From: Acidobacteriota bacterium | Lineage (GTDB): Bacteria; Acidobacteriota; UBA4820; DSQY01 | DNA: 64,000 nucleotides | Reading direction: 5' to 3' | NCBI GenBank assembly: GCA_049967655.1 | Contig: JBMFSH010000011.1 | Location: 13,781-77,780 of the forward strand | Shown here: positions 30,012-54,153 of the stretch, piece by piece | Layout of the letters: every line of letters begins with the position of its first letter | How positions within the stretch are numbered: position 1 is the stretch's first letter | Made by a program: the position numbers and the translations under genes | The notes under the pieces: generated by a model | What the model was told of the DNA's origin: nothing | The model's input: only the letters and a program-made list of their open reading frames with translations | Databases searched by the model: none

Positions 30012-32528
<2,517 letters not shown>

Positions 32529-32659
32529 GGGTTGCCCTCTGGAAAACGTCCTTCGCTAGAGAATCCGAGGACAGGGGACGGGAGGCCGAGATTCCTTTTT
32601 CCCCGACACTACTCCGACCTCACCTCTTCTGGTCCCTTGTCCCATGTCCCCTATCCCTA

Positions 32660-35104
<2,445 letters not shown>

Positions 35105-36178
35105 TTACGTCGCCGGCGGGAACTCTTCCAACACCCTTCCCGATTCCACGCGAAAAATCGTCGAGGGTTTGAGGGAGGGCAGGTCGGGCCTCGTGGCCGT
35201 GACCACGAGCTGGGCTCTTCCCTGCGTCAGGTCCATCAGCTGCCCGATGCGCTCCCTGTCCAGCTCCGCCTCCACGTCGTCCAGCAAGAAAAGGGGGGGC
35301 CTCTCGCCCCGTTCGGAGAGGACCTGCACTCGTGATAATTTCAGCATCCACAAGGCCGACCGAATCTGTCCCGATGAGCCGTAGCTCCCGATGGGCCTTC
35401 CATCCAGGAGAATCTGGACCTGGTCCCGCTGAGGCCCCGCCAGGGAGACGCCGCGGCGGATCTCCTGGGCCCGGGCTTCCCGCATTGCCCTTTCCAAATC
35501 CTCGCCCCCGCTGGGTTCGTACACCAACTCGATGTGCTCGTCAAAATTCAACCTCTGCCGGAGGGATTTCAGGGCGCCGTTGATCGTCTCGGCGGCCGCC
35601 TTTCGCTCCAGTCTGATCGGGGAGGCCAGTCGGCGGAATGTATCGCTCCAGGCATCCAGCTCCCGAGCCCTTCGGGGCGAGTAGTCCCGCAGAACCTGAT
35701 TCCGCTGATCCTTGCACCGGCCGAAGGCCAGAAGCGTATCGAGGTGGGCGGGGCGTCTCCAGACCGCCGTGGCATCAAGAAAGTTCCTCCGATGCCGCGG
35801 GGACCCTTCCACCAAACCGCGGTCCTCCACGCTCAAGACTACCACAGGCAAGCCCTGAACGTAAGTCGCCAGGGGGACGGACTGCCCGTCGCGGCGGTAC
35901 TGCCTCCCCCGCCGGCTCAGGTGAAGGGTGAGGAGGTGGCGGACCTTTTCCCCCTCCACGGAGGCCTCCAGCGTGGCCGACTCCTGCCCGTGGGCGATCA
36001 GGACTTCGGACCGGCTTTCGCGGAAGGAGCGCGTCGTCGCTATCAGGTAGAGGGCTTCAAGAAGGTTGGTCTTTCCCTGCGCGTTGGCCCCGTAAAACAG
36101 GGTAACGGGCCCGCGGAAGTCGATCCGCGAGCCCGCCAGATTGCGAAAGCCCTTCACGCTCAGCGAGTGGAGCCTCAA
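35105..36178 (-). CDS. recF: DNA replication/repair protein RecF
   Basis: FRNL, GANAQGKTNLLEA, GP.RD, GSSGQ, LLDDV..ELD. Confidence 0.93.
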   Translation of the reverse strand: MRLHSLSVKGFRNLAGSRIDFRGPVTLFYGANAQGKTNLLEALYLIATTRSFRESRSEVLIAHGQESATLEASVEGEKVRHLLTLHLSRRGRQYRRDGQSVPLATYVQGLPVVVLSVEDRGLVEGSPRHRRNFLDATAVWRRPAHLDTLLAFGRCKDQRNQVLRDYSPRRARELDAWSDTFRRLASPIRLERKAAAETINGALKSLRQRLNFDEHIELVYEPSGGEDLERAMREARAQEIRRGVSLAGPQRDQVQILLDGRPIGSYGSSGQIRSALWMLKLSRVQVLSERGERPPLFLLDDVEAELDRERIGQLMDLTQGRAQLVVTATRPDLPSLKPSTIFRVESGRVLEEFPPAT

Positions 36179-37302
36179 TCAAACCTCAGGGGCATGACGA
36201 CGTACTTGTGGATCAACTCCCCCTCTCCACGCAGAGGCTGAAAGAGAACCTGGTAGTAAGGATCTCTCATGGCCATGACGATCTTCTCGGCATCACTCAC
36301 CGTGAGGAAGTCAATCAGATAATCCACGTTGAAGACGATGCCAATGGCCTCCCCCTCATAGCTCTCGCTGGTGAGGTATTCGCGACCCTCGTCGCCCGTC
36401 TCCTGATTGCGGACCATCACCTCCAAAGTCCCAGCAGGATCGAAGGCCACACTGACCGCCCTGGTCTTGCTCTCGGCCACCATGGAGACCCTCTTGAGCC
36501 TTTCCAGGAAAGCCGTCCGTGAGAGGATCGCCTTCTTGTCGGATTCGGCGGGCAGGACCTTCTCGTAAGCAGGGAAGGTCGTGTCCATGAGCCTGCTGTA
36601 GAGGAAGCGCCGGCCCATCTCCAGAAAAACGTGGTTGTCCCTGAAGGCGAGGGTGACGCCGTCGGCGTCCTCCAGCTTCAGAAACTCCGTCAGGGTCTTC
36701 CTAGGGATGAGCACGCGCAGAGGCTTCTCCACAGCCAGAGGGCCGTTCCACTGGGAATAGGTCAACCGGTGGGAGTCGGTGGAGACCATGGTGAGCTGAT
36801 CCGGTTCCAGGATCAGCAGGCCGCCCCGTACCGAGAAGCGGTTGTCCTCCACGCCGACAGAAACCAGAACCTCTGAAATGCAGCGCTTGAACACCGAGGT
36901 GGGAATCTTCAGTTGCTGGGTCTCTCCCGAGCCCAGAAGGGTGGGGTAGTCTTCCTCGGGAAGGGTCTGGAGGTGATACTCCTGCCTGCCTCCCACGGGC
37001 TGAAGAAAGAGTTTTCCTTCGGCCGTCGTCTTGAGGGATAGGGGTGCGTCGGAGGTGGCGAAGGCCCGCACGATGGAGCCGAATTTACGCGCTGGAACGG
37101 TGATTCCACCCGGGGAGACCACCTCGGCTGGGCACTGCGTTCGCAAGGTGACCTCCAGATCGGTGGCCGCCAGTTCCACGTGGTCCCCTTCCGCCTTCAG
37201 CAGCAGATTGGACAGGATGGGGATGGTGGCCTTGCTTTCGATGACGCCGAGCGCGAGGTTCAACTCGGACTGCAGGGCCCGCGCATCAACTCTGATGTCC
37301 AT
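36175..37302 (-). CDS. dnaN: DNA polymerase III beta clamp
   Basis: TIPILSN, ATDLE, STDSHRL, FPAYEKV, FN..YL.D, VVMPLR. Confidence 0.96.
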   Translation of the reverse strand: MDIRVDARALQSELNLALGVIESKATIPILSNLLLKAEGDHVELAATDLEVTLRTQCPAEVVSPGGITVPARKFGSIVRAFATSDAPLSLKTTAEGKLFLQPVGGRQEYHLQTLPEEDYPTLLGSGETQQLKIPTSVFKRCISEVLVSVGVEDNRFSVRGGLLILEPDQLTMVSTDSHRLTYSQWNGPLAVEKPLRVLIPRKTLTEFLKLEDADGVTLAFRDNHVFLEMGRRFLYSRLMDTTFPAYEKVLPAESDKKAILSRTAFLERLKRVSMVAESKTRAVSVAFDPAGTLEVMVRNQETGDEGREYLTSESYEGEAIGIVFNVDYLIDFLTVSDAEKIVMAMRDPYYQVLFQPLRGEGELIHKYVVMPLRFD

Positions 37303-37509
37303 AGGTATCCCTCCTAATCAGCAAAGAAGAAGTAGTAGGACCTGTGGATCCGTGAAAAAATGGCGTAACTGCTTGCGAAGTAGAGAAAAATCCTCTACTG
37401 GAAATTGTGGATAATACCGGCGGGACACCTGCAAAAACGACCTTACCTTCCCCCATAGCGTTTTTCCACATCCCTTCGACAGCCTGTTTTGCACAGCCGC
37501 CCCCTATCT
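37303..37509. promoter_or_regulatory. oriC: oriC (dnaA-dnaN intergenic region) with DnaA boxes and DnaA-trios
   Basis: Perfect TGTGGATAA 37406-37414; TTTTCCACA 37462-37470; TTTTGCACA 37487-37495; AAG AAG AAG TAG TAG GACC TGTGGATCC 37324-37351; locally AT-richer. Confidence 0.85.
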
Positions 37510-38853
37510 TCAGTGTAATGCCTGGATAAAATTGTGGATCTGCTGTTGAATTCCTGGGTCCTTGGCCATTCGCTCCTCCACCTTCCGAATGGAGTGAAGC
37601 ACCGTTGTATGATGCTTGCCGCCGAACTTGCGGCCGATCTCGGGAAGGGAGGCGTCGGTGAGTTCCTTGCATAGGTACATGGCCAGCTGCCGCGGCACGA
37701 CCACGTCGGCCTTATTGGTCTTGGCCTTCAGGTCCGCCAGCTTCATCTTGAAGGCGGCCGCCACGTGCTTCTGAATGGCCTCCACGGTGAGGGCGTGACC
37801 GTCCTCGTGAAAGAGGCTCTGAAAGGTCTCACGGGCGAGATCGAGGGTGATCGGCTTGCCCTTGAAGTTGGAGAAGGCAATCAGCCTGAGCAGGCACCCT
37901 TCCAACTCGCGGATGTTGCTCTTGATTCTGCTGGCGATGAAGAGGGCCACCTCCTCGGGGATGGCAATCTTGTGGGCCTCCGCCTTCTTGTACAGGATGG
38001 CCACCTTGGTTTCCAGCTCCGGGGGCTGGATGTCGGCGATCAGGCCCCATTCGAAGCGGGAGCGCAGCCGCTCCTCGATGCTCTGCAGGTCTCGCGGCGG
38101 GCAGTCGCTGGAGAGGACGATCTGCTTCTGCGCCTCGTGGAGAGCGTTGAACGTATGAAAGAGCTCCTCCTGGGTCCCGGCCTTGCCGGCCAGGAACTGC
38201 ACGTCATCCAACAGAAGGACGTCCACCTGCCGGTATCGTTCACGGAACTCCGGCTGCTGCCGGTGCGCGATGGAGCTGATCATCTCGTTCATGAACCGCT
38301 CGGTGGAGAGGTAGGAGATTCGGAGAGAGGGAAAGTGGGTGAGCAGCTCCTGGCCGATGGACTGCATGAGGTGGGTCTTGCCGAGCCCCACACCGCCGTA
38401 GATGTAAAGCGGATTGTAGGACTTGGAGGGAGTCTGGGCCACGGCCTGGCATGCGGCGAAGGCGAATCGGTTGGAGGGGCCGACGACGAAGGAGTCGAAC
38501 CTGTAGTTCGAATTGAGGCTGAACGGACGCCCCGCCGGGGCGCCGGTCTTGGGCCGCGTCTCGGACGGGAGAACGACTGGCGCGGAAAGAACCAGGTCCT
38601 GGGAGGGATCATCGGAGAGGTCCACCAGCTCCACGGTCACCTCTCCTAGCCCCAGCTCCTGGGCCACCTCAGAAAACAAACTGGAGTAGTGATTCTCGAT
38701 CCACTCCCTGAACAGGGGGTTGGGCACTTGGACGTACAGTCTGTGTCCGTCCATACGAAGGCACTTGAGGGGCTTGAACCAAGTGCTGAAGTTGGTCTCG
38801 GAAACCCTGCCTTTGACGCCGTTCAGCAGTTTGGTCCACGTGTTGGAGGACAT
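37510..38853 (-). CDS. dnaA: Chromosomal replication initiator DnaA
   Basis: FDSFVVG.SN, YNPLYIYGGVGLGKTHL, LLDDVQF, RLRSRFEWGL, NIRELEG, HTTV. Confidence 0.98.
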   Translation of the reverse strand: MSSNTWTKLLNGVKGRVSETNFSTWFKPLKCLRMDGHRLYVQVPNPLFREWIENHYSSLFSEVAQELGLGEVTVELVDLSDDPSQDLVLSAPVVLPSETRPKTGAPAGRPFSLNSNYRFDSFVVGPSNRFAFAACQAVAQTPSKSYNPLYIYGGVGLGKTHLMQSIGQELLTHFPSLRISYLSTERFMNEMISSIAHRQQPEFRERYRQVDVLLLDDVQFLAGKAGTQEELFHTFNALHEAQKQIVLSSDCPPRDLQSIEERLRSRFEWGLIADIQPPELETKVAILYKKAEAHKIAIPEEVALFIASRIKSNIRELEGCLLRLIAFSNFKGKPITLDLARETFQSLFHEDGHALTVEAIQKHVAAAFKMKLADLKAKTNKADVVVPRQLAMYLCKELTDASLPEIGRKFGGKHHTTVLHSIRKVEERMAKDPGIQQQIHNFIQALH

Positions 38854-47749: not shown

Positions 47750-48538
47750 ATGGATTCGGCGACGCTCACCCTCTTCTCCTTCACGGCCCGGCAGATGACG
47801 CGCTCGGTCAAGGCCTGGCTCTTCGGCCTCATGGTGGCCGTGCCCTGGGGCGTGGTCCTGCTACTGAGGCTTCTCATCGCCCAGGGGGTGCCCGTGCCGA
47901 TGGGTGGAGTCACGCTCTACGGCATGCTCGTGCTCGGGTACGTGCTCGGCTTTTTCGTGCCGCTCTCGACGCTCTTTTTCGGGACGGCCCTCATCGCCGA
48001 CGAGGTGGAGGGCGGAACCCTGCCCTACCTCTTCGGCCGGCCCATCCGGCGCGAGAAGCTTTTCCTCGTCCGGTACGCGGCCATGACGGCCATCCTGCTG
48101 GCGGGAACGTGGGCCAGCGTCCTGGGCACCTACGTCCTGGCCATGACGAGCGGATCGCCCGCGGGAGAGCTGGGGACCTTGGGCGGCGACCTCTTCACCG
48201 TAGGCCTCGCCGTGGCGGTCTACGGGGCCCTCTTCTCCTTCCTCGGCATGGCCCTAAAGAAGCCCCTCTTCTGGGGGCTCCTCATCGGCTTCGGCTGGGA
48301 GAACCTGGTGGCGTGGCTGCCGGGCTTCCTCAAGCGCCTCACCCTGCTCTTCCACCTCCACACCCTGCTCCCCCACGCCTCGGGGCCCCAGGGCCTCCTC
48401 CAGCAGCTCCTGGCCTCCAGCGAGAGCCGCCTGGCGGCCCTGCTCTTCCTGCTCGTCTACGAGGCCCTCTTCCTGGCCCTAGGCTGCCTCCTCATCCGCC
48501 GCATGGAGGCCTCCGTTGGCGAGAGGGAAGAAGGGTAG
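47750..48538 (+). CDS. ABC-2 type permease
   Basis: About 6 TM segments, DEVEGGTLPYLFGRPI.R. Confidence 0.88.
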   Translation: MDSATLTLFSFTARQMTRSVKAWLFGLMVAVPWGVVLLLRLLIAQGVPVPMGGVTLYGMLVLGYVLGFFVPLSTLFFGTALIADEVEGGTLPYLFGRPIRREKLFLVRYAAMTAILLAGTWASVLGTYVLAMTSGSPAGELGTLGGDLFTVGLAVAVYGALFSFLGMALKKPLFWGLLIGFGWENLVAWLPGFLKRLTLLFHLHTLLPHASGPQGLLQQLLASSESRLAALLFLLVYEALFLALGCLLIRRMEASVGEREEG

Positions 48539-48539
48539 G
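48405..48539 (+). repeat. 135-bp direct repeat, left copy (attL-like; 3' end of permease)
   Basis: Matches 53265-53399 (offset 4860); 85-bp identical core 48431-48515. Confidence 0.95.
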
Positions 48540-48689
48540 GCCGGAGGAGGAAAAGAGCCGTCCGGCCCCGGGGCCCCGTCCGCCAGCTGGCTTCGGAAGA
48601 TACAATAGACATGGCTGGACATGCCTTTTCGGGAAAAGCCAAGAAAGACGGCCTCCCTTCCTTGCGGTTGTGGGTTTGCGGGCTGCCCC

Positions 48690-48720
48690 TTGAAAAAAAA
48701 AGGGGGGGGGGGCATATATT
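48690..48720 (+). promoter_or_regulatory. Sigma70-type promoter with homopolymer (A9-G11) spacer
   Basis: TTGAAA 48690-48695, 19-nt spacer containing G11 (48702-48712), TATATT 48715-48720. Confidence 0.65.
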
Positions 48721-48766
48721 TGCGCTAACCCCAGCGGGAAGGGCAGGAAAGAAAGGAGGGTGCTTC

Positions 48767-48973
48767 ATGAAAAAGCTGTTCACGGTTAGTGCTATTTTGG
48801 GAGCGTTGCTGTTGGTGACAGTTTTGGTCTTCGGTAGCCAGGCTCCCCCGCCCCCTATTATCTTGCCCCCGGGAGGCAATTGCGGGCCGGTTTATGGCTG
48901 CACTTTCAGTCGTGTGACCGGCTACTGCGAGGGTACCTCGGGGGCCTGCCAATGCATGGACTGTTACCCTTGA
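48767..48973 (+). CDS. Secreted 68-aa peptide with a 6-Cys C-terminal domain
   Basis: AAAGGAGG RBS; MKK-hydrophobic signal, Pro-rich linker, NCGPVYGCTFSRVTGYCEGTSGACQCMDCYP. Confidence 0.8.
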   Translation: MKKLFTVSAILGALLLVTVLVFGSQAPPPPIILPPGGNCGPVYGCTFSRVTGYCEGTSGACQCMDCYP

Positions 48974-49026
48974 TGTGAAGGATACCCCTGTCCCGCCGGC
49001 GGTTGATATGCGTGAGGAGGTGAGCG

Positions 49027-50100
49027 ATGAGAGGAAGGGGGCGGCACGGCGGTTTGGTGCTGCTTCGCTCGGTGACAATTCTCTGTTTAGGGCTCTTTGG
49101 TGGATCGCTGCCCATCGCGTCTGCTGCACCAAGGCTCCTTTCGGTTGAACCCCTTGTCCTACCCGGCCTGCCGAAGGCCGTGGAGGGGCTCTGCGCGGGC
49201 CCTCAAGGGCGCCTCTTCGTGCTGGACAGGGTGAACGGAGAGGTGCTCGTTTTCGATAAAGAGGGCCGAAAGATAGGCTCCTTCGGCAAGGGAAGGATAG
49301 TAGGCCCACGCTCCATCACGGCTGCCGGCTCAGAAGTCGCGGTTGTGGAGGGGAGAGGGTCCCTCCTTTTTTTCAATGGGCGAACCCTCTCTTACGAGAA
49401 GACGACAACCGGCCTCACCCGTTACTGCCCTGGCTTGGGGGCCGCGCTCACACCCAAAAGGATCGTCTATGGCGGCATGGGCTACGAAGGGGAGCGGCCC
49501 GAACGGGGGGAGACCTTCGACGCCCTGGTGCTCTTTTCGACCGACTGGGAGGGCCGGGATCTTCGCGTGTGCGCGCGCAGGAAGGTTTTGTGGGAGGAGG
49601 AGAAGGGCTTTCAAATCCTTGCAGGAAGTCATTTCTTTCCTTTACAGGGAGGGGGGATTGCGGTGGCTCGGGTCTTTCCACCCAAGATCTGGTTGCTCGA
49701 TTCGGAGGGCCGGGTGGTGAGGCAATCGCAGGGGGGAAACGAACCTCTGCCACGCGCTCCCTCGGAAGGGCGCCTTCCTCCCGATCAGGAGTGGGATGCC
49801 ATCTATTTCGGAACACCGCACGTGGAGGGTCTTTTCGCCGCCGGAGACCGCTTCGCTCTCATCGTCCGGGAACACACCCAAATGGGGCACGTGCTCTACC
49901 TTTCTTGGTATGACAAGGATCTTCGGCCTTACCAAAGAGAACCCCTCCGGCTCCCGGTCGTCCTGGGGAGTGACGATTTTGTACGCGGGACGGTTTCCTG
50001 GGGGAGCAACGAGATTCTTCTTCTCCTCGTTCGCCGGCAAGAAAGGCCCTGGGGCATCGGGATCTCACGGGTGTTTCGGCTCAAGTTCTCGCACGGATAG
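49027..50100 (+). CDS. Exported beta-propeller (NHL/6-bladed-like) protein
   Basis: GAGGAGGT RBS; signal peptide; GRLFVLDRVNGEVLVFDKEGRKIGSFG NHL-like blade, later IWLLDSEGRVV and WYDKDL. Confidence 0.7.
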   Translation: MRGRGRHGGLVLLRSVTILCLGLFGGSLPIASAAPRLLSVEPLVLPGLPKAVEGLCAGPQGRLFVLDRVNGEVLVFDKEGRKIGSFGKGRIVGPRSITAAGSEVAVVEGRGSLLFFNGRTLSYEKTTTGLTRYCPGLGAALTPKRIVYGGMGYEGERPERGETFDALVLFSTDWEGRDLRVCARRKVLWEEEKGFQILAGSHFFPLQGGGIAVARVFPPKIWLLDSEGRVVRQSQGGNEPLPRAPSEGRLPPDQEWDAIYFGTPHVEGLFAAGDRFALIVREHTQMGHVLYLSWYDKDLRPYQREPLRLPVVLGSDDFVRGTVSWGSNEILLLLVRRQERPWGIGISRVFRLKFSHG

Positions 50101-50114
50101 GGCTCGCAAAGACG

Positions 50115-50615
50115 ATGCGCCGAAACGGTCAATCGTTTTTCCTCGCCTTAGCGCTGGTCGTTTTTTGGGCTGGCTGCCGGGCGCCCTCCCCGGAGAACGC
50201 CTGGACGCGGTTGCAAAAGACGACACGCGACTCCAACTACCGCTACCTCGCGCTTCTGTTTGTCCCTGAAAAGGGGTGTACCTGCACCTACCTGGAAGCC
50301 TTCGCCGCCGCCCAAAAGGCCATCACGCAAAAGGGGATCTCATGCCGGTTAGTGCTGGTCATCCCGCCGGGTGGGCCGGCCGAAGCCCTGGCGGGGGAGG
50401 GCGTGCCAAGGGAAGCTCTCTATGAAGACCAGGGGCGAGCCGTGGCCGACGCCATCGGCGTGGATTCCGGCGATCTTCCCTACTTCGTCGTTCTGCCGGT
50501 TTCCAGCCCGGCTCGGCGGGTGATTGCCTACCGGCTCGCCGGGCCGGCTGGCGTCCAAAGCCAAACAGAGAACCTTCTAGACGTTCTCTTGTTCTTACCG
50601 GGAGGTCGAGTATGA
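50115..50615 (+). CDS. Lipoprotein, thioredoxin-fold-like
   Basis: Lipobox WAGC; LLFVPEKGCTC; YEDQGRAVADAIGV...LPYFVVL. Confidence 0.6.
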   Translation: MRRNGQSFFLALALVVFWAGCRAPSPENAWTRLQKTTRDSNYRYLALLFVPEKGCTCTYLEAFAAAQKAITQKGISCRLVLVIPPGGPAEALAGEGVPREALYEDQGRAVADAIGVDSGDLPYFVVLPVSSPARRVIAYRLAGPAGVQSQTENLLDVLLFLPGGRV

Positions 50616-53266
50616 GGCGGGCTTCGATGGTGCTGCTCGTGGCCGGATGGATAGGGTGGAGTTTGGTCTGGGCCCAGGAGGGGCGCACTTGGCGGCTCGG
50701 GTTCGAACCGGCCGCCGAACCGGTGGCTGTGCAATTGAAGGATCTCGCGGGCAAGATCAGCGATGCGCCGTGCCTTCTGTGGCAGGAGGGAGGCGCACCC
50801 GTGAAGGTCGAAAAAGGGACGCCGTATCCTGCCCGGCTTCCGGAGGGGCGGCCTCTTCGGGTTGAGGCCTTGACCCCCGAGGGCAAGCGTGTGCCCGGGA
50901 TCCACCTCAGCTGGCGCGTCGAGGGTTGGCCCCTCTTGCCAGCCCCTGCTGGGGAGCAAGCCACGGACGCCAAGGGCCGCCTCACCTTCTCTTTGCCGGC
51001 AGGCCTTCCCGTCACGCTGTGGGCCAACGAGGAGCCGTGGGCCGCGAGCCCCGTGGCCGTCGCCGGCGACACTCCGGAGGCTTCCGTAATAGTGGTTCCG
51101 GCGCCGCCCGGGGAGATCCGCATTCTCGATTCCTCGGGCCGCTGCGTTGCTGGTGCGAGGCTGGTGACGGCGCAGCAGGCATTGTTGCGCGATCCAATCG
51201 CCACGACCCGCCTTCCTTCCTTCGGTCTGAAGGAGGAGATTTCGAACCCATTCGGCCGGGTGGTCTTCGCTTCGCCCCCAGGGGCCCTGTCGGGATGGGT
51301 TCTGGCCGAGGGATACCGCCTGCACGAATGGGCTGGAGCCGCGGAACGAACCGTGCGCCTGGAGCCGGCCGGCCCCGTGCGCCTCGCGATTCATTTGGAG
51401 AAGGGAGCGCCTTCTCCGGACCACGTCACCATTCGCCTGACGGCCAACCTCCCCCCTATACCCTGGGTGCCGCTCGTTCTCGAAAAGGAGACCTCGTCCC
51501 TGGATCTGCCGGTATTTCCCTTCACCGATTCATGCGCGCTGGAGGTGGTAGCGGAGGGCTTCGAAGCGGCATGGATCTCCCCCGCCGAACTCTCCGGAAA
51601 GGCAAAGGTGGAGGTCATGCTGAAACGGGGGCTTCGCCTTGGGGGGGTGGTCCTTTCTCCAAGCGGGGCACCCGTGGAGAGGGCTATCGTGCTCGTGGAT
51701 GGGCTTGCCAGGCCGGCCCCTGGTCGAGCCAGAACCGACAAAAGGGGGCGTTTTCTGTTGGCGTCCCTGCCCCGTGGCCGTTGGAGCCTCCACGTTCAGG
51801 CCGCGAACTATAAGGAGGCGAACTTCGGCCCCTTTTCATCCATGGACCGGAACGACTTGAAGTTGGTGCTCAAGAGGGGCGCCCTTATCCGGGGGTTCAT
51901 CTCCGGCTACGGACCACAGCCGGGCGGCGAGGACTGCCGCGTTCTCCTGAAAAAGGCCTCATCAAGCACACCGGGGCCCACCCAGCAGGAGGTTCCCCTC
52001 TCCGAAGACGGCTCCTTCGAAATAGGAGGCTTGGAACCAGGGGCCTACCACCTGCTGGCCTGGAGTCCTGGGAGAGGGCGCGCTTCGGAGGAGTTCACCC
52101 TCCAGGAGAACGAGGAGCGCGATCTTGGTGTAATCCGCTTCGACACCTCGCCTCATGTGAGCGGCCGTCTGGAGAGGGCCAGCGGTGAGACATGGGAAGG
52201 GGGCGGGGAGGTTGTTCTTGAACGAATGCTCCATGCCGCGGATGCCACCACCTCCTATCCGCCGAGGAACCTAGTCGCCTCCGCTGACGATGACGGCACC
52301 TTCGCCTTCACCGGTGTTCCGGAGGGAAGCTACGTTCTGAAGGCACGATGCGGCGGCCTTTCCAGTAGACCCAAGAGGGTCCAGGTAGAGGATCGGGACG
52401 CAGACGCCGGCGTCCTCATTCTGGAGCGCAGCGGTAACGTCTCCGGGCGCCTCCTTTCGAGGAGGGGCACTCATTTCGCTGGGTGGAGGCTTTTTCTGAA
52501 GATCCAGAGCTATGAACCCACGGCTCCTCTGGCGGTCGCGGATGCCGATGGCACCTTCGCCTTTGGAGCGGTGGCGCCGGGGCCGTACCGGCTGGAGGCC
52601 TATGGACCTACCGATCTCTCACCCCGCTGTAGCCGCTCCCTGGATGTGGAGGAGGGCCAGCAGGTAGATCTCCAATGGCCTATCGAAGGGGTTTCGGTGC
52701 GGGTTTTTCTCCAGGTTGGTGGACGACCGGCGGCGAGAGCGGTGGTAGTGCTCGATCCCGCCTCTTCAGGTTTTGAGGAAGGAGGATTGCTTCAGATCTC
52801 TGGCGGAGGGGGGTCGCAGCTTTTTGGTCTGCCCGCACAGCCCAGTCGCGGCCAAGCCGACGACGCCGGATTTGCAGCCATTGAAAATGCGGTGCCAGGG
52901 CTGGCTCAAGCCAGCCTCTATTGGGAGGGAGGCGAATACCACGCCTCCGTTGCGGTTCCTGACGACGAAGGGGTCGTACCCACGTGGAATTTTATGGGTG
53001 TCCCTGTCCAAGGCTGGGTTCTTGATCACACAAGCGCTCCTGTGCCCGGGGCCCTTGTCACCTATGGGTACGCCGAGCTCGGAACGAACCCCGCCAACAG
53101 TGTGGTGGCTGATTCCACGGGGGCCTTTCTTCTGCCGAGAATGGGCGCTGGCTCCCTCGTCCTCGTCGCACGCGACGCGGCGGGACATCAAGGCAAAACG
53201 GCGCTGCAGGTCGCGGATCAACCGCTCAGCGGGGTGAAAATCGTCCTCGCTGCCGGCACACCCTAG
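50612..53266 (+). CDS. Large exported protein with carboxypeptidase-regulatory-like beta-sandwich repeats
   Basis: Signal peptide; repeated G.V....G.PV..A.V...TD..G.F....L.PG.Y.L; GGAGGT RBS. Confidence 0.8.
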   Translation: MRRASMVLLVAGWIGWSLVWAQEGRTWRLGFEPAAEPVAVQLKDLAGKISDAPCLLWQEGGAPVKVEKGTPYPARLPEGRPLRVEALTPEGKRVPGIHLSWRVEGWPLLPAPAGEQATDAKGRLTFSLPAGLPVTLWANEEPWAASPVAVAGDTPEASVIVVPAPPGEIRILDSSGRCVAGARLVTAQQALLRDPIATTRLPSFGLKEEISNPFGRVVFASPPGALSGWVLAEGYRLHEWAGAAERTVRLEPAGPVRLAIHLEKGAPSPDHVTIRLTANLPPIPWVPLVLEKETSSLDLPVFPFTDSCALEVVAEGFEAAWISPAELSGKAKVEVMLKRGLRLGGVVLSPSGAPVERAIVLVDGLARPAPGRARTDKRGRFLLASLPRGRWSLHVQAANYKEANFGPFSSMDRNDLKLVLKRGALIRGFISGYGPQPGGEDCRVLLKKASSSTPGPTQQEVPLSEDGSFEIGGLEPGAYHLLAWSPGRGRASEEFTLQENEERDLGVIRFDTSPHVSGRLERASGETWEGGGEVVLERMLHAADATTSYPPRNLVASADDDGTFAFTGVPEGSYVLKARCGGLSSRPKRVQVEDRDADAGVLILERSGNVSGRLLSRRGTHFAGWRLFLKIQSYEPTAPLAVADADGTFAFGAVAPGPYRLEAYGPTDLSPRCSRSLDVEEGQQVDLQWPIEGVSVRVFLQVGGRPAARAVVVLDPASSGFEEGGLLQISGGGGSQLFGLPAQPSRGQADDAGFAAIENAVPGLAQASLYWEGGEYHASVAVPDDEGVVPTWNFMGVPVQGWVLDHTSAPVPGALVTYGYAELGTNPANSVVADSTGAFLLPRMGAGSLVLVARDAAGHQGKTALQVADQPLSGVKIVLAAGTP

Positions 53267-53399
53267 CTCCTGGCCTCCAGCGAAAGTCGGCTGGCGGCCC
53301 TGCTCTTCCTGCTCGTCTACGAGGCCCTCTTCCTGGCCCTAGGCTGCCTCCTCATCCGCCGCATGGAGGCCTCCGCCGCCGAGCGCGAGGAGGGGTAGG
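53265..53399 (+). repeat. 135-bp direct repeat, right copy (attR-like; orphan permease tail)
   Basis: Encodes LLASSESRLAALLFLLVYEALFLALGCLLIRRMEASAAEREEG* with no upstream gene body. Confidence 0.95.
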
Positions 53400-53421
53400 C
53401 CCGCCTGCTCTCCCCCATAGC

Positions 53422-53449
53422 GAGGGGGCGGGCTGAAGCCCGCCCCCTC
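53422..53449. terminator. Hairpin terminator
   Basis: GAGGGGGCGGGCT-ga-AGCCCGCCCCCTC between convergent units. Confidence 0.7.
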
Positions 53450-53535
53450 CTGCCGCCGGCTGTGCCGGTCCGCGGCAGTCCCCTCCGGGACCCGCGTCCG
53501 TCATCGCGAAATCGCTCGCCGTCTCTCCGAGCCCG

Positions 53536-54153
53536 TCAGAACCGCGCCGCCATTTTGCGGGCCTTGCCCTCCTCGTAGCGGGCGGCCAGCGCCGGCCAGT
53601 TCACGTTCTCGAAGAAGGCCTTGATGTAGTCGGGCCGTCCGCCGGCGCCCCAGTCCACCATGTAGGCGTGCTCGAAGACGTCCATGATGAAAACGGGGAT
53701 GAAGCCTGCGATGTTGCCGTCCTCGTGGAGCTGGATGAAGTGGTTGGTGAGCCCGCCGGTGGCGGGGTCCAGGTAGCAGATGGCCCAGCCCACGGAGCGG
53801 CTGGCGCCGCACTTGACGAAGTCCTCCTTCCAGGCCTCGAAGGAGCCGTACTGCTCGGCCAGGGCCTTGCGCAGGGGCGAATCGGCGGGGAGCTCGGGGG
53901 CGCCCGCCTTCAGGTTGCCGAAGTAGTACTCGTGCAGGACCATGCCGTTGACCTCAAAGCCAAAGCGGCGGCGGCGGTCGGCGTAGAGGGCGGTGCCCCC
54001 CTTGCCCTCCTTCCGCATCGCCTCCAGCTCGGAGAGCAGGGCGTTGGTGTTGGCCACGTAGCCCTCGTAGAGCTTCCAGTGCTGGGCGATCTGGTTCTCC
54101 GAGATCCCCTTGAGGTTGGCCGGTTTTAGGTGGACTTTCACGTCGTATGTCAT
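53536..54153 (-). CDS. Fe/Mn superoxide dismutase family protein
   Basis: H..LY.GYV, LHEYYF, YGSFEAWK, GWA, MDVFEHAYMVD, NVNW. Confidence 0.9.
   Translation of the reverse strand: MTYDVKVHLKPANLKGISENQIAQHWKLYEGYVANTNALLSELEAMRKEGKGGTALYADRRRRFGFEVNGMVLHEYYFGNLKAGAPELPADSPLRKALAEQYGSFEAWKEDFVKCGASRSVGWAICYLDPATGGLTNHFIQLHEDGNIAGFIPVFIMDVFEHAYMVDWGAGGRPDYIKAFFENVNWPALAARYEEGKARKMAARF

Follow-up and report, generated by a model that had tools for sequence, protein, structure and literature searches.

A horizontally exchanged gene cassette for small cysteine-containing peptides, beta-propellers and a shared scaffold protein in Acidobacteriota, with a candidate phase-variable promoter

An inserted four-gene cassette and its gene layout

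The window analysed here is a 64,000-nt stretch of DNA from an uncultured Acidobacteriota bacterium (UBA4820; DSQY01; GCA_049967655.1, contig JBMFSH010000011.1, positions 13,781-77,780 of the forward strand). It contains a cassette of four genes for exported proteins, namely a small cysteine-rich peptide, a six-bladed beta-propeller, a lipoprotein and an 884-aa beta-sandwich protein, inserted at the 3' end of an ABC-2 permease gene. Homologous cassettes in related genomes show that it is horizontally exchanged and inserted as a unit at the ends of various host genes. We propose, with a probability of roughly 40%, that it is a horizontally exchanged, probably phase-variable envelope module in which an exchangeable peptide-propeller head is combined with a shared scaffold. 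In the following, G000 denotes the window's own genome, G001 and G002 are among its three congeners, other G numbers are relatives, and L numbers are fetched DNA stretches.

All four genes lie on the plus strand. The peptide gene (48767-48973) is preceded by a ribosome-binding site recognised from the sequence (AAGGAGG, 48753-48759) and encodes 68 aa comprising a signal peptide, a Pro-rich linker and a six-Cys core that ends in Pro. After 53 nt follows the gene for an exported NHL-like propeller of 357 aa (49027-50100), and after a further 14 nt the gene for a 166-aa lipoprotein (50115-50615), which overlaps by 4 nt the gene for the 884-aa protein of exported, tandem transthyretin-like (CarboxypepD_reg) beta-sandwich domains (50612-53266). 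The insertion contains these four genes only, and their third-position GC is 0.65-0.71, compared with 0.93 in the permease gene. An earlier preliminary description of this DNA had reported four closely spaced, co-oriented open reading frames (ORFs), the first with a strong ribosome-binding site, a hydrophobic N-terminus, a Pro-rich linker and the spacing C-x5-C-x8-C-x6-C-x-C-x2-C; all of these features are present as described. Export signals, assessed by eye and with a simple charge/hydrophobicity rule, were also recognised on all four products. No modifying enzyme of the lanthi-, sacti/ranthi-, YcaO/TOMM or lasso type was found among the four proteins with Pfam and NCBIfam, in agreement with the earlier view that the locus belongs to no recognisable class of ribosomally synthesised and post-translationally modified peptides (RiPPs).

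Recurrence of the cassette and exchange of its parts

A total of 24 propeller genes were collected, 19 from 10 of the 25 family genomes and five from metagenome contigs; several of these loci are related, so they do not represent 24 independent events. A duplicate of the G008 locus (L093), a locus without a propeller (L095), the second piece of a split G017 propeller and two weak NHL-type matches outside the family had been excluded before counting. Upstream of the propellers, 15 intact ORFs with a ribosome site, a signal peptide and at least two Cys were identified, and five loci retained a peptide core without a usable start; two loci had no peptide, and two had less than 200 nt of upstream DNA. 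The same signal-peptide and Cys filter was passed by only 8 of 1223 long G000 genes, used as a control, and by 2 of 27 DUF5128 loci from other Acidobacteriota. The expectation that propeller homologues would recurrently follow small Cys-rich signal-peptide ORFs was thus borne out.

The propeller was found in 10 and the large protein in 12 of the 25 family genomes, and the two co-occur. In every cassette on a long enough contig, the large gene follows the propeller gene, with or without the lipoprotein gene between them. The four genes very probably form a real, co-functioning cassette. Profile searches over 401 genomes of the phylum, in which five to eight candidates were scored per genome and absence means only that nothing was found there, detected no cassette outside this one family. 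A search with an eight-sequence alignment returned six metagenome loci and eight genome loci, the latter all already collected, indicating that its reach beyond the family was limited. Word-based homologue searches recovered three propellers, one peptide and nine lipoproteins, and a library-wide propeller profile search was dominated by long NHL-repeat proteins.

The peptide and the propeller travel together, and the large protein can be common to unrelated peptide-propeller pairs. Large proteins 85% identical to each other were found behind propellers only 25% and 28% identical, and in the one such pair with comparable peptides the peptide goes with the propeller (23% against 89%). Partial correlations over 20 cassettes were 0.56 between peptide and propeller and 0.11 between peptide and large protein, although the underlying pairs are not independent. 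G000 carries three unrelated copies of the cassette, of which the two outside the window share 27-34% protein identity with the window cassette, and none was found in its three congeners. Moreover, L096 and L074 each contain two peptide-propeller units before one large gene. In L096 (697-7372), an 81-nt duplication fuses the second peptide core to the start of a truncated large gene (its signal peptide and initial residues). In L074 (4498-4974), a fusion at the Cys motif links the lipoprotein gene with the 3' end of tgt, and the promoter of the next peptide comes directly after it, suggesting that the unit once sat behind tgt.

The peptide family

Compared with its G017 orthologue, the mature window peptide has 0.19 nonsynonymous differences per nonsynonymous site (pN) and 0.94 synonymous differences per synonymous site (pS), and all six Cys are kept. 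For two paralogous peptides, the ratio of nonsynonymous to synonymous substitution rates (dN/dS) against metagenome orthologues was 0.28 and 0.23; across all four genes of two orthologous pairs it was 0.21-0.30, the peptides being similar to their partner genes. These low ratios indicate purifying selection on all four genes and thus that the small ORF is a real gene. Together with its recurrence upstream of homologous propellers, this upholds the earlier proposal of an extracytoplasmic, peptide-centred module.

No peptide family was assigned at the Pfam or NCBIfam cut-off. In 11 aligned peptides, two Cys are invariant; their spacing is about six or seven residues, and a short hydrophobic strand comes after them. 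The number of Cys per peptide varies from two to six, so the six Cys noted in the window peptide are not a hallmark of the family. The core ends in Pro in 18 of 20 peptides and in Gly in one of 20, and the net charge of 11 mature cores lies between -2 and +1, which is near neutral and unlike that of cationic antimicrobial peptides. No conserved Trp, His or acidic ligand was found in the peptides, and the window peptide has no Trp at all. The earlier term "hypervariable" applies between cassette lineages but not within one lineage, where the peptide is conserved, its mature part (73%) more so than its partners (59% and 47%).

Insertion and mobility

The cassette is flanked by two copies of a 139-nt direct repeat on the plus strand. 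The left copy (48405-48543) is the 3' end of the functional permease gene, whose last codons are a variant brought with the cassette, and the right copy (53265-53403) is an orphan permease 3' end that begins at the stop codon of the large gene. The copies are 92% identical, lie 4860 nt apart and contain an identical 85-nt core (48431-48515 in the left copy). In the congeners G001 and G002, the permease gene is directly followed by a superoxide dismutase gene, which represents the empty site. Relative to these congeners, the left copy is ancestral at three of the four differing sites before the core and variant at all eight after it, and the right copy shows the reverse. As read from the sequences, such a pattern is expected from a crossover in which the host gene recombined with a diverged copy that the cassette had brought along; only site 48430 does not fit it. 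A simple target-site duplication is disfavoured, because the functional left copy bears the variant 3' codons and the orphan right copy the ancestral ones.

No recombinase gene is present in the 4.86-kb insertion, nor was a fixed short att site recognised. Integrase-mobilised integrative elements have both, whereas the cassette has neither, and its flanking repeats are 139, 70, 53 and 525 nt long and derive from two host genes. In genus g3, the repeat flanking three cassettes is the end of uvrB and measures 70, 53 and 525 nt. The flanking repeat is absent at 17 of the 20 stretches examined. The sites of the two further G000 cassettes are empty in all three congeners, and the ends of the flanking genes are altered. 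Cassettes were located at uvrB, at a UbiA-family gene, at mntP and at other genes. In addition, four related metagenome runs of one study contained fragments of the cassette at a depth of about 3-5 alongside the empty join (depth 20 in one run). The orthologous cassette of G017 also ends beside the dismutase gene, indicating that this insertion site was used in two genera. A general habit of the genome to duplicate gene ends was rejected as an explanation; 33 spaced direct repeats were listed, most of which looked intergenic or simple by eye, without being checked individually. Recombination in the flanking host genes is the likely means by which the cassette moves.

A link to the ABC exporter into which the cassette is inserted had been raised as speculative. 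It is rejected here, since the congeners have an empty site and other cassettes lie at other genes. The permease is present in 17 of 18 family genomes, and none of the 17 permease neighbourhoods fetched, some of which end at contig edges, contained cassette DNA. The empty sites and the varied host genes show that the ABC transporter is a landing site, and only one of several, rather than a component of the system.

Promoter tracts

Upstream of the peptide gene, a putative sigma-70 promoter (48690-48720, plus strand) is composed of the -35 box TTGAAA (48690-48695), A6, G11 (48702-48712), two further bases and the -10 box TATATT (48715-48720). The preliminary description does not mention this tract, and the insertion is no more than hinted at there. 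With boxes assigned by consensus only, the promoter spacer is 19 nt, and a standard promoter scan of 48400-53600 with spacers of 16-18 nt returned no promoter. A tract pattern was defined, after these promoters had been seen, as a -35-like hexamer closely followed by a run of at least seven G or six A. It was present at 12 of the 24 loci compared with 3 of 1223 control windows and, over the whole genome, at 12 of 1134 such hexamers. Both poly-G and poly-A versions occur in related cassettes. Eleven of the 12 tract loci have a -10 candidate, in no case at a spacer of 16-18 nt; by comparison, the spacers of six promoters with tracts in front of ordinary G000 genes measure 17-18 nt. A homopolymer within the spacer, in combination with the lack of any cassette promoter at 16-18 nt, suggests phase variation of the cassette promoter, which we consider fairly probable. 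If these promoters switch like known phase-variable spacers, the state captured in the assemblies, which is that of the majority, would be OFF or weak.

Phase variation through the promoter spacer is known at porA, opc and fetA of Neisseria, where a homopolymer likewise lies between the -35 and -10 boxes before exported products. The present tracts differ in occurring in uncultured environmental Acidobacteriota and in both poly-G and poly-A versions, and switching is a candidate property only. One G010 promoter was assembled twice across a gap, with G14 and G20. In G000, the other two of the longest tracts that follow a -35 hexamer stand before a lanthipeptide cluster and before a short ORF. 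The former is a class I cluster (L155 2160-11961; G000:C47, minus strand) with a G16 tract and a 22-nt spacer in its promoter; it encodes a precursor, an FtsX/MacB permease, LanC, LanB in two ORFs, a C39-ABC protein and HlyD. In relatives, tract promoters mostly precede other genes for exported proteins.

Structure of the propeller, the large protein and the lipoprotein

The NHL-like propeller named in the preliminary description was confirmed by folding, although its Pfam matches are below cut-off (NHL, E 0.0078; DUF5128, E 0.014; 15 bits against a cut-off of 22.9 for PF17170, DUF5128). The model had a predicted local distance difference test score (pLDDT) of 89.1 and a predicted template modelling score (pTM) of 0.86, and six blades were read from its strand list. 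The six best structural matches were all NHL domains (Z 19.2-21.1), the first with Z 21.1 and a root-mean-square deviation of 3.6 over 249 residues. The closest Atlas clusters bear NHL/DUF5128. A weak DUF5128 match was obtained for 3 of 19 propeller homologues (best E 6.1e-8), and PF17170 was found at E 1e-8 in none of 16 family genomes. An alignment of 41 propellers had no invariant column, and its six near-invariant columns look structural; the lack of invariant positions favours a role in binding over one in catalysis, and enzymatic maturation of the peptide by the propeller, as contemplated earlier, is thus disfavoured.

Complex modelling gave the window peptide and its propeller a score of 0.34 (runs 0.42, 0.06 and 0.34), compared with 0.00 for the best control. 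The pLDDT of the partner was 42-48, and the runs share at least 35% of contacts. In calibration, 116 of 157 solved pairs and 2 of 215 mismatched pairs came up to the mark; those reaching it at 0.60 or less comprised only 18 solved pairs together with both mismatches. The models lend weak support to binding of the peptide by its cognate propeller, which we hold to be somewhat more likely than not.

Tandem CarboxypepD_reg domains account for the beta-sandwich repeat architecture reported earlier for the 884-aa protein (PF13620; five stretches, E 3.7e-41, 139.8 bits against a cut-off of 32.3). At least five such domains are present, and the model is all-beta and multidomain (pLDDT 85.9, pTM 0.75). 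Later domains resemble transthyretin-like, SusC N-terminal and pilin CnaB domains, among them the transthyretin-like domain of carboxypeptidase D (Z 12.5, with residues 1-340 barely covered), and a Foldseek search with the whole model gave only matches of low template modelling score. The protein has no C-terminal anchor, and its length is constant (880-900 aa) across cassettes. The orphan permease end (53264-53398), which encodes a hydrophobic helix, continues the reading frame of the large gene past its stop codon, so that read-through would add a membrane anchor. In the G017 orthologue the stop is at the same position, and chance (1 in 3) is sufficient to explain the in-frame orphan end.

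The lipoprotein is an optional member of the cassette. Its lipobox Cys and CxC motif are conserved, and C55, C57 and P122 are invariant in all 14 lipoproteins, whereas a third mature Cys is never conserved; no CxxC is present. From the order of strands and helices suggested by alignment, it probably has a thioredoxin fold. No Pfam match was obtained for eight members, and a PDB sequence search gave no meaningful match. An hhalign comparison with AhpC-TSA proteins of G000 brought the Cys motif into register at a probability of 8% (E 0.004-0.005), and an AhpC-TSA row with 0.90 appeared in the Atlas at rank 28. Hence, the earlier notion of a CxC lipoprotein in a thioredoxin-like context stands as regards the lipobox and the CxC, and the thioredoxin-likeness is unconfirmed by profile tests. 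All 12 lipoprotein profile matches in the 401 genomes lie inside cassettes.

Proposed mechanism

In the mechanism that we propose, slippage of the spacer tract would bring the promoter to a spacer of about 17 nt, and the operon would then be transcribed in a subpopulation. All four products would be exported via Sec. The peptide may fold as a small disulfide-closed hairpin with a C-terminal strand, and the CxC lipoprotein, where present, could help it to do so, possibly with MauE of the genome as the oxidant. A MauE match is present in G000 (G000:C2 44238-44609, minus strand) inside a 668-codon open frame, and no DsbB or VKOR match was found in that genome. MauE can replace DsbB, according to one report (10.64898/2026.03.05.709764). 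The folded peptide would bind its cognate propeller to give an exchangeable recognition head, which the transthyretin-repeat scaffold might hold or present at the envelope. The resemblance of scaffold domains to pilin/CnaB and SusC N-terminal domains was counted in favour of such display, and display of the head on the scaffold is a tentative proposal for the purpose of the cassette. The result would be a strain-specific surface or periplasmic identity, serving adhesion or partner or kin recognition, that is worth being OFF mostly.

Several observations weigh against this envelope module. As to switching, 12 of the 24 loci have no tract, including four with a seemingly complete upstream region (G000:C6, the first unit of L096, G008 and G017:C10), and no change of tract length within one strain was observed in the assembled contigs. 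As to pairing, rank correlations of the peptide are equal for propeller and large protein (0.24 and 0.24), the nearest neighbours of peptide and propeller agree in only 9 of 20 cases (5 of 20 for the large protein), adjacency alone also predicts part of the peptide-propeller co-variation, and the complex score is weak, with one of three runs at only 0.06. Two related cassettes without a peptide retain propeller and large genes under selection (dN/dS 0.18 and 0.19), indicating that a propeller with no peptide gene beside it can still function. The lipoprotein is missing from eight cassettes, six with peptides of three to six Cys and two without a peptide, and it occurs with two-Cys peptides, so its presence does not track Cys number; this is a poor fit to a dedicated isomerase for complex peptides. 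Finally, no gene for outer-membrane export and no anchor was found in the cassette, and surface exposure is a proposal only.

Alternative explanations

The main rival, which we regard as unlikely, is antagonism: a disulfide-bonded antibacterial peptide, exported via Sec, would be made by a switched-on minority, with the cognate propeller either neutralising it by binding, as an immunity protein, or delivering it, and the large protein aiding release or delivery. Lesions gather in the peptide gene, which lacks a usable start in five and is missing in two of the 22 loci with enough upstream DNA, compared with one frameshift among 24 propellers and no internal stop in 20 large-protein matches, and the partners of missing peptides are still under selection. 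However, insertion-sequence hits at the peptide start may just silence the whole operon, and one-base deletions could be assembly errors. The patchy spread (three unrelated copies in G000, no copy found in its three congeners) and the lanthipeptide cluster of the same genome behind the same promoter design (G16, spacer 22) also agree with antagonism, as does the pairing of a disulfide peptide with a thiol oxidoreductase in bacteroidetocins (PMC6671954). On the other hand, a single promoter would silence immunity as well, leaving OFF cells unprotected unless internal promoters exist; the peptide cores are not cationic, no route across the outer membrane is encoded, and the conserved 884-aa scaffold is left unexplained. 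A broader formulation is an undescribed class of recognition or antagonism system. A library of disulfide mini-proteins exported via Sec would each have a six-bladed propeller that reads or neutralises it, sit as an exchangeable head on a common transthyretin-repeat scaffold, spread by recombination at the ends of host genes and be switched stochastically through the promoter homopolymer; on balance, this is doubtful.

The peptide could also be a light subunit, with disulfides or a bound metal, in a periplasmic complex with the propeller that serves catalysis or metal handling. Methylamine dehydrogenase has such a layout, with a small disulfide-rich subunit, a propeller subunit and the thioredoxin-like MauD. 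The cassette has the same kinds of parts as the MauA/MauB/MauD/MauE set, namely a small disulfide-rich exported subunit, a propeller partner and a probably thioredoxin-like helper; in G000, MauE is present in the absence of a DsbB/VKOR match, and the greater conservation of the mature peptide than of its partners within a lineage would suit a subunit. In methylamine dehydrogenase, MauD and MauE serve disulfide formation (10.64898/2026.03.05.709764). However, only two Cys are common between lineages, no conserved Trp, His or acidic ligand occurs in peptides or propellers, and no heme or peroxidase gene is present. The insertion likewise has no conserved Trp pair and no cofactor-forming gene, the peptide cores of different cassettes are unrelated, the propeller is six-bladed and NHL-like, and the Cys motif is CxC. 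Head swapping and a promoter set to OFF would be more typical of a contingency locus than of a metabolic enzyme, and we consider a light subunit quite improbable.

A new RiPP class, with the propeller as an extracytoplasmic lyase, cyclase or ligase acting on the peptide, is highly improbable. The precursor-first gene order would suit it, and propeller enzymes are among the lower structural neighbours, such as the amidating lyase PAL (Z 18.9) and a hetero-Diels-Alderase (Z 17.5). However, non-catalytic NHL domains score higher (Z 19-21), the 41 propellers lack an invariant column, and a signal peptide takes the place of a recognisable leader; with 18 of 20 cores ending in Pro and one in Gly, PAL-type amidation would be without a substrate. 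Peptide signalling, with the peptide as a pheromone and the propeller as its binding protein, would agree with the cognate pairing, the lineage-specific peptides and the peptide-less "listener" cassettes, but no kinase, regulator, sigma factor or membrane-spanning receptor was found in any cassette examined and the flanking genes vary between sites, so the signalling module suggested earlier has only a very slim chance of being correct.

Relation to known systems

No match of the four-gene set to a characterised system was found, and no description of the cassette was found in the literature, of which subscription journals and supplements were poorly covered, so that a mention in print is possible. 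The closest arrangement is that of the NVEALA (PF14055)/DUF5128 (PF17170, six-bladed propeller) neighbourhoods of Bacteroidota, which we take to be uncharacterised. There, too, a small exported Cys peptide directly precedes an exported six-bladed propeller, and a thioredoxin-like gene often accompanies them. Here, by contrast, the motif is CxC instead of CxxC, a constant transthyretin-repeat protein of 880-900 aa and promoter tracts are added, the cassette is confined to one family in the genomes searched, and the window propeller scores below the DUF5128 cut-off; no PF14055 match at E up to 1 was obtained in 11 peptides. A genome-level search for PF14055 was silent in its controls as well and carries no weight here. 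Analogous pairs of a peptide and a DUF5128 propeller were observed in other Acidobacteriota (L181 5265-8591 and L180 57-1527). L181 also encodes an AhpC-TSA family CxxC protein and ABC genes, and the large scaffold is missing there.

Bacteroidetocins (class IIf) are encoded in the Gram-negative host by a four-gene locus for a small disulfide peptide with a double-glycine leader of 15-16 aa, a thiol oxidoreductase, a C39-peptidase ABC exporter and a membrane protein, and the paper nowhere mentions a propeller (PMC6671954). The cassette differs in its Sec-type signal, propeller and scaffold and in the lack of a C39 exporter. The adjacent ABC ATPases and ABC-2 permeases have no C39 domain and are host genes outside the insertion.

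The cassette is thus a variant of a peptide-propeller arrangement known only as a gene neighbourhood, and it is neither an NVEALA member, nor a bacteroidetocin, nor a member of a known RiPP class. Its new features are the constant large scaffold, the CxC lipoprotein, the natural module swaps, the insertion signature and the promoter tracts. To our knowledge, small exported Cys peptides beside six-bladed propellers occur in several phyla with no assigned function. The present family offers a compact test set of about 20 natural cores of 30-45 residues with matched propellers, swaps and peptide knock-outs, in which natural swaps separate the peptide-propeller pair from the scaffold. If the recognition or antagonism interpretation were true, it would be the first lead to a function for the widespread orphan peptide-propeller neighbourhoods in Bacteroidota and in other Acidobacteriota. 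The promoter tracts suggest slipped-strand switches for exported products in uncultured environmental Acidobacteriota, the lanthipeptide cluster included, which, if true, would explain silent clusters in expression surveys.

Further tract promoters and position of the cassette

An orthologous poly-G promoter unrelated to the cassettes was observed in L156 (1119-1260; G000:C2) and L157, with G15 in G000 and G13 in G001; the only ORF that it drives is hydrophobic and 25 codons long. A second family of cassettes, likewise for exported proteins, lies behind long poly-G promoter tracts in G001, G017 and G036 (L174, L167, L162 and L172). It encodes proteins of about 330 and 290 aa, the first without a Pfam match, and the second gene has a relative downstream of the G008 cassette. 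In the window, gyrA, gyrB, dnaN and dnaA were recognised from their translations alone at 30012-38634, placing the cassette about 10 kb from the probable replication origin.

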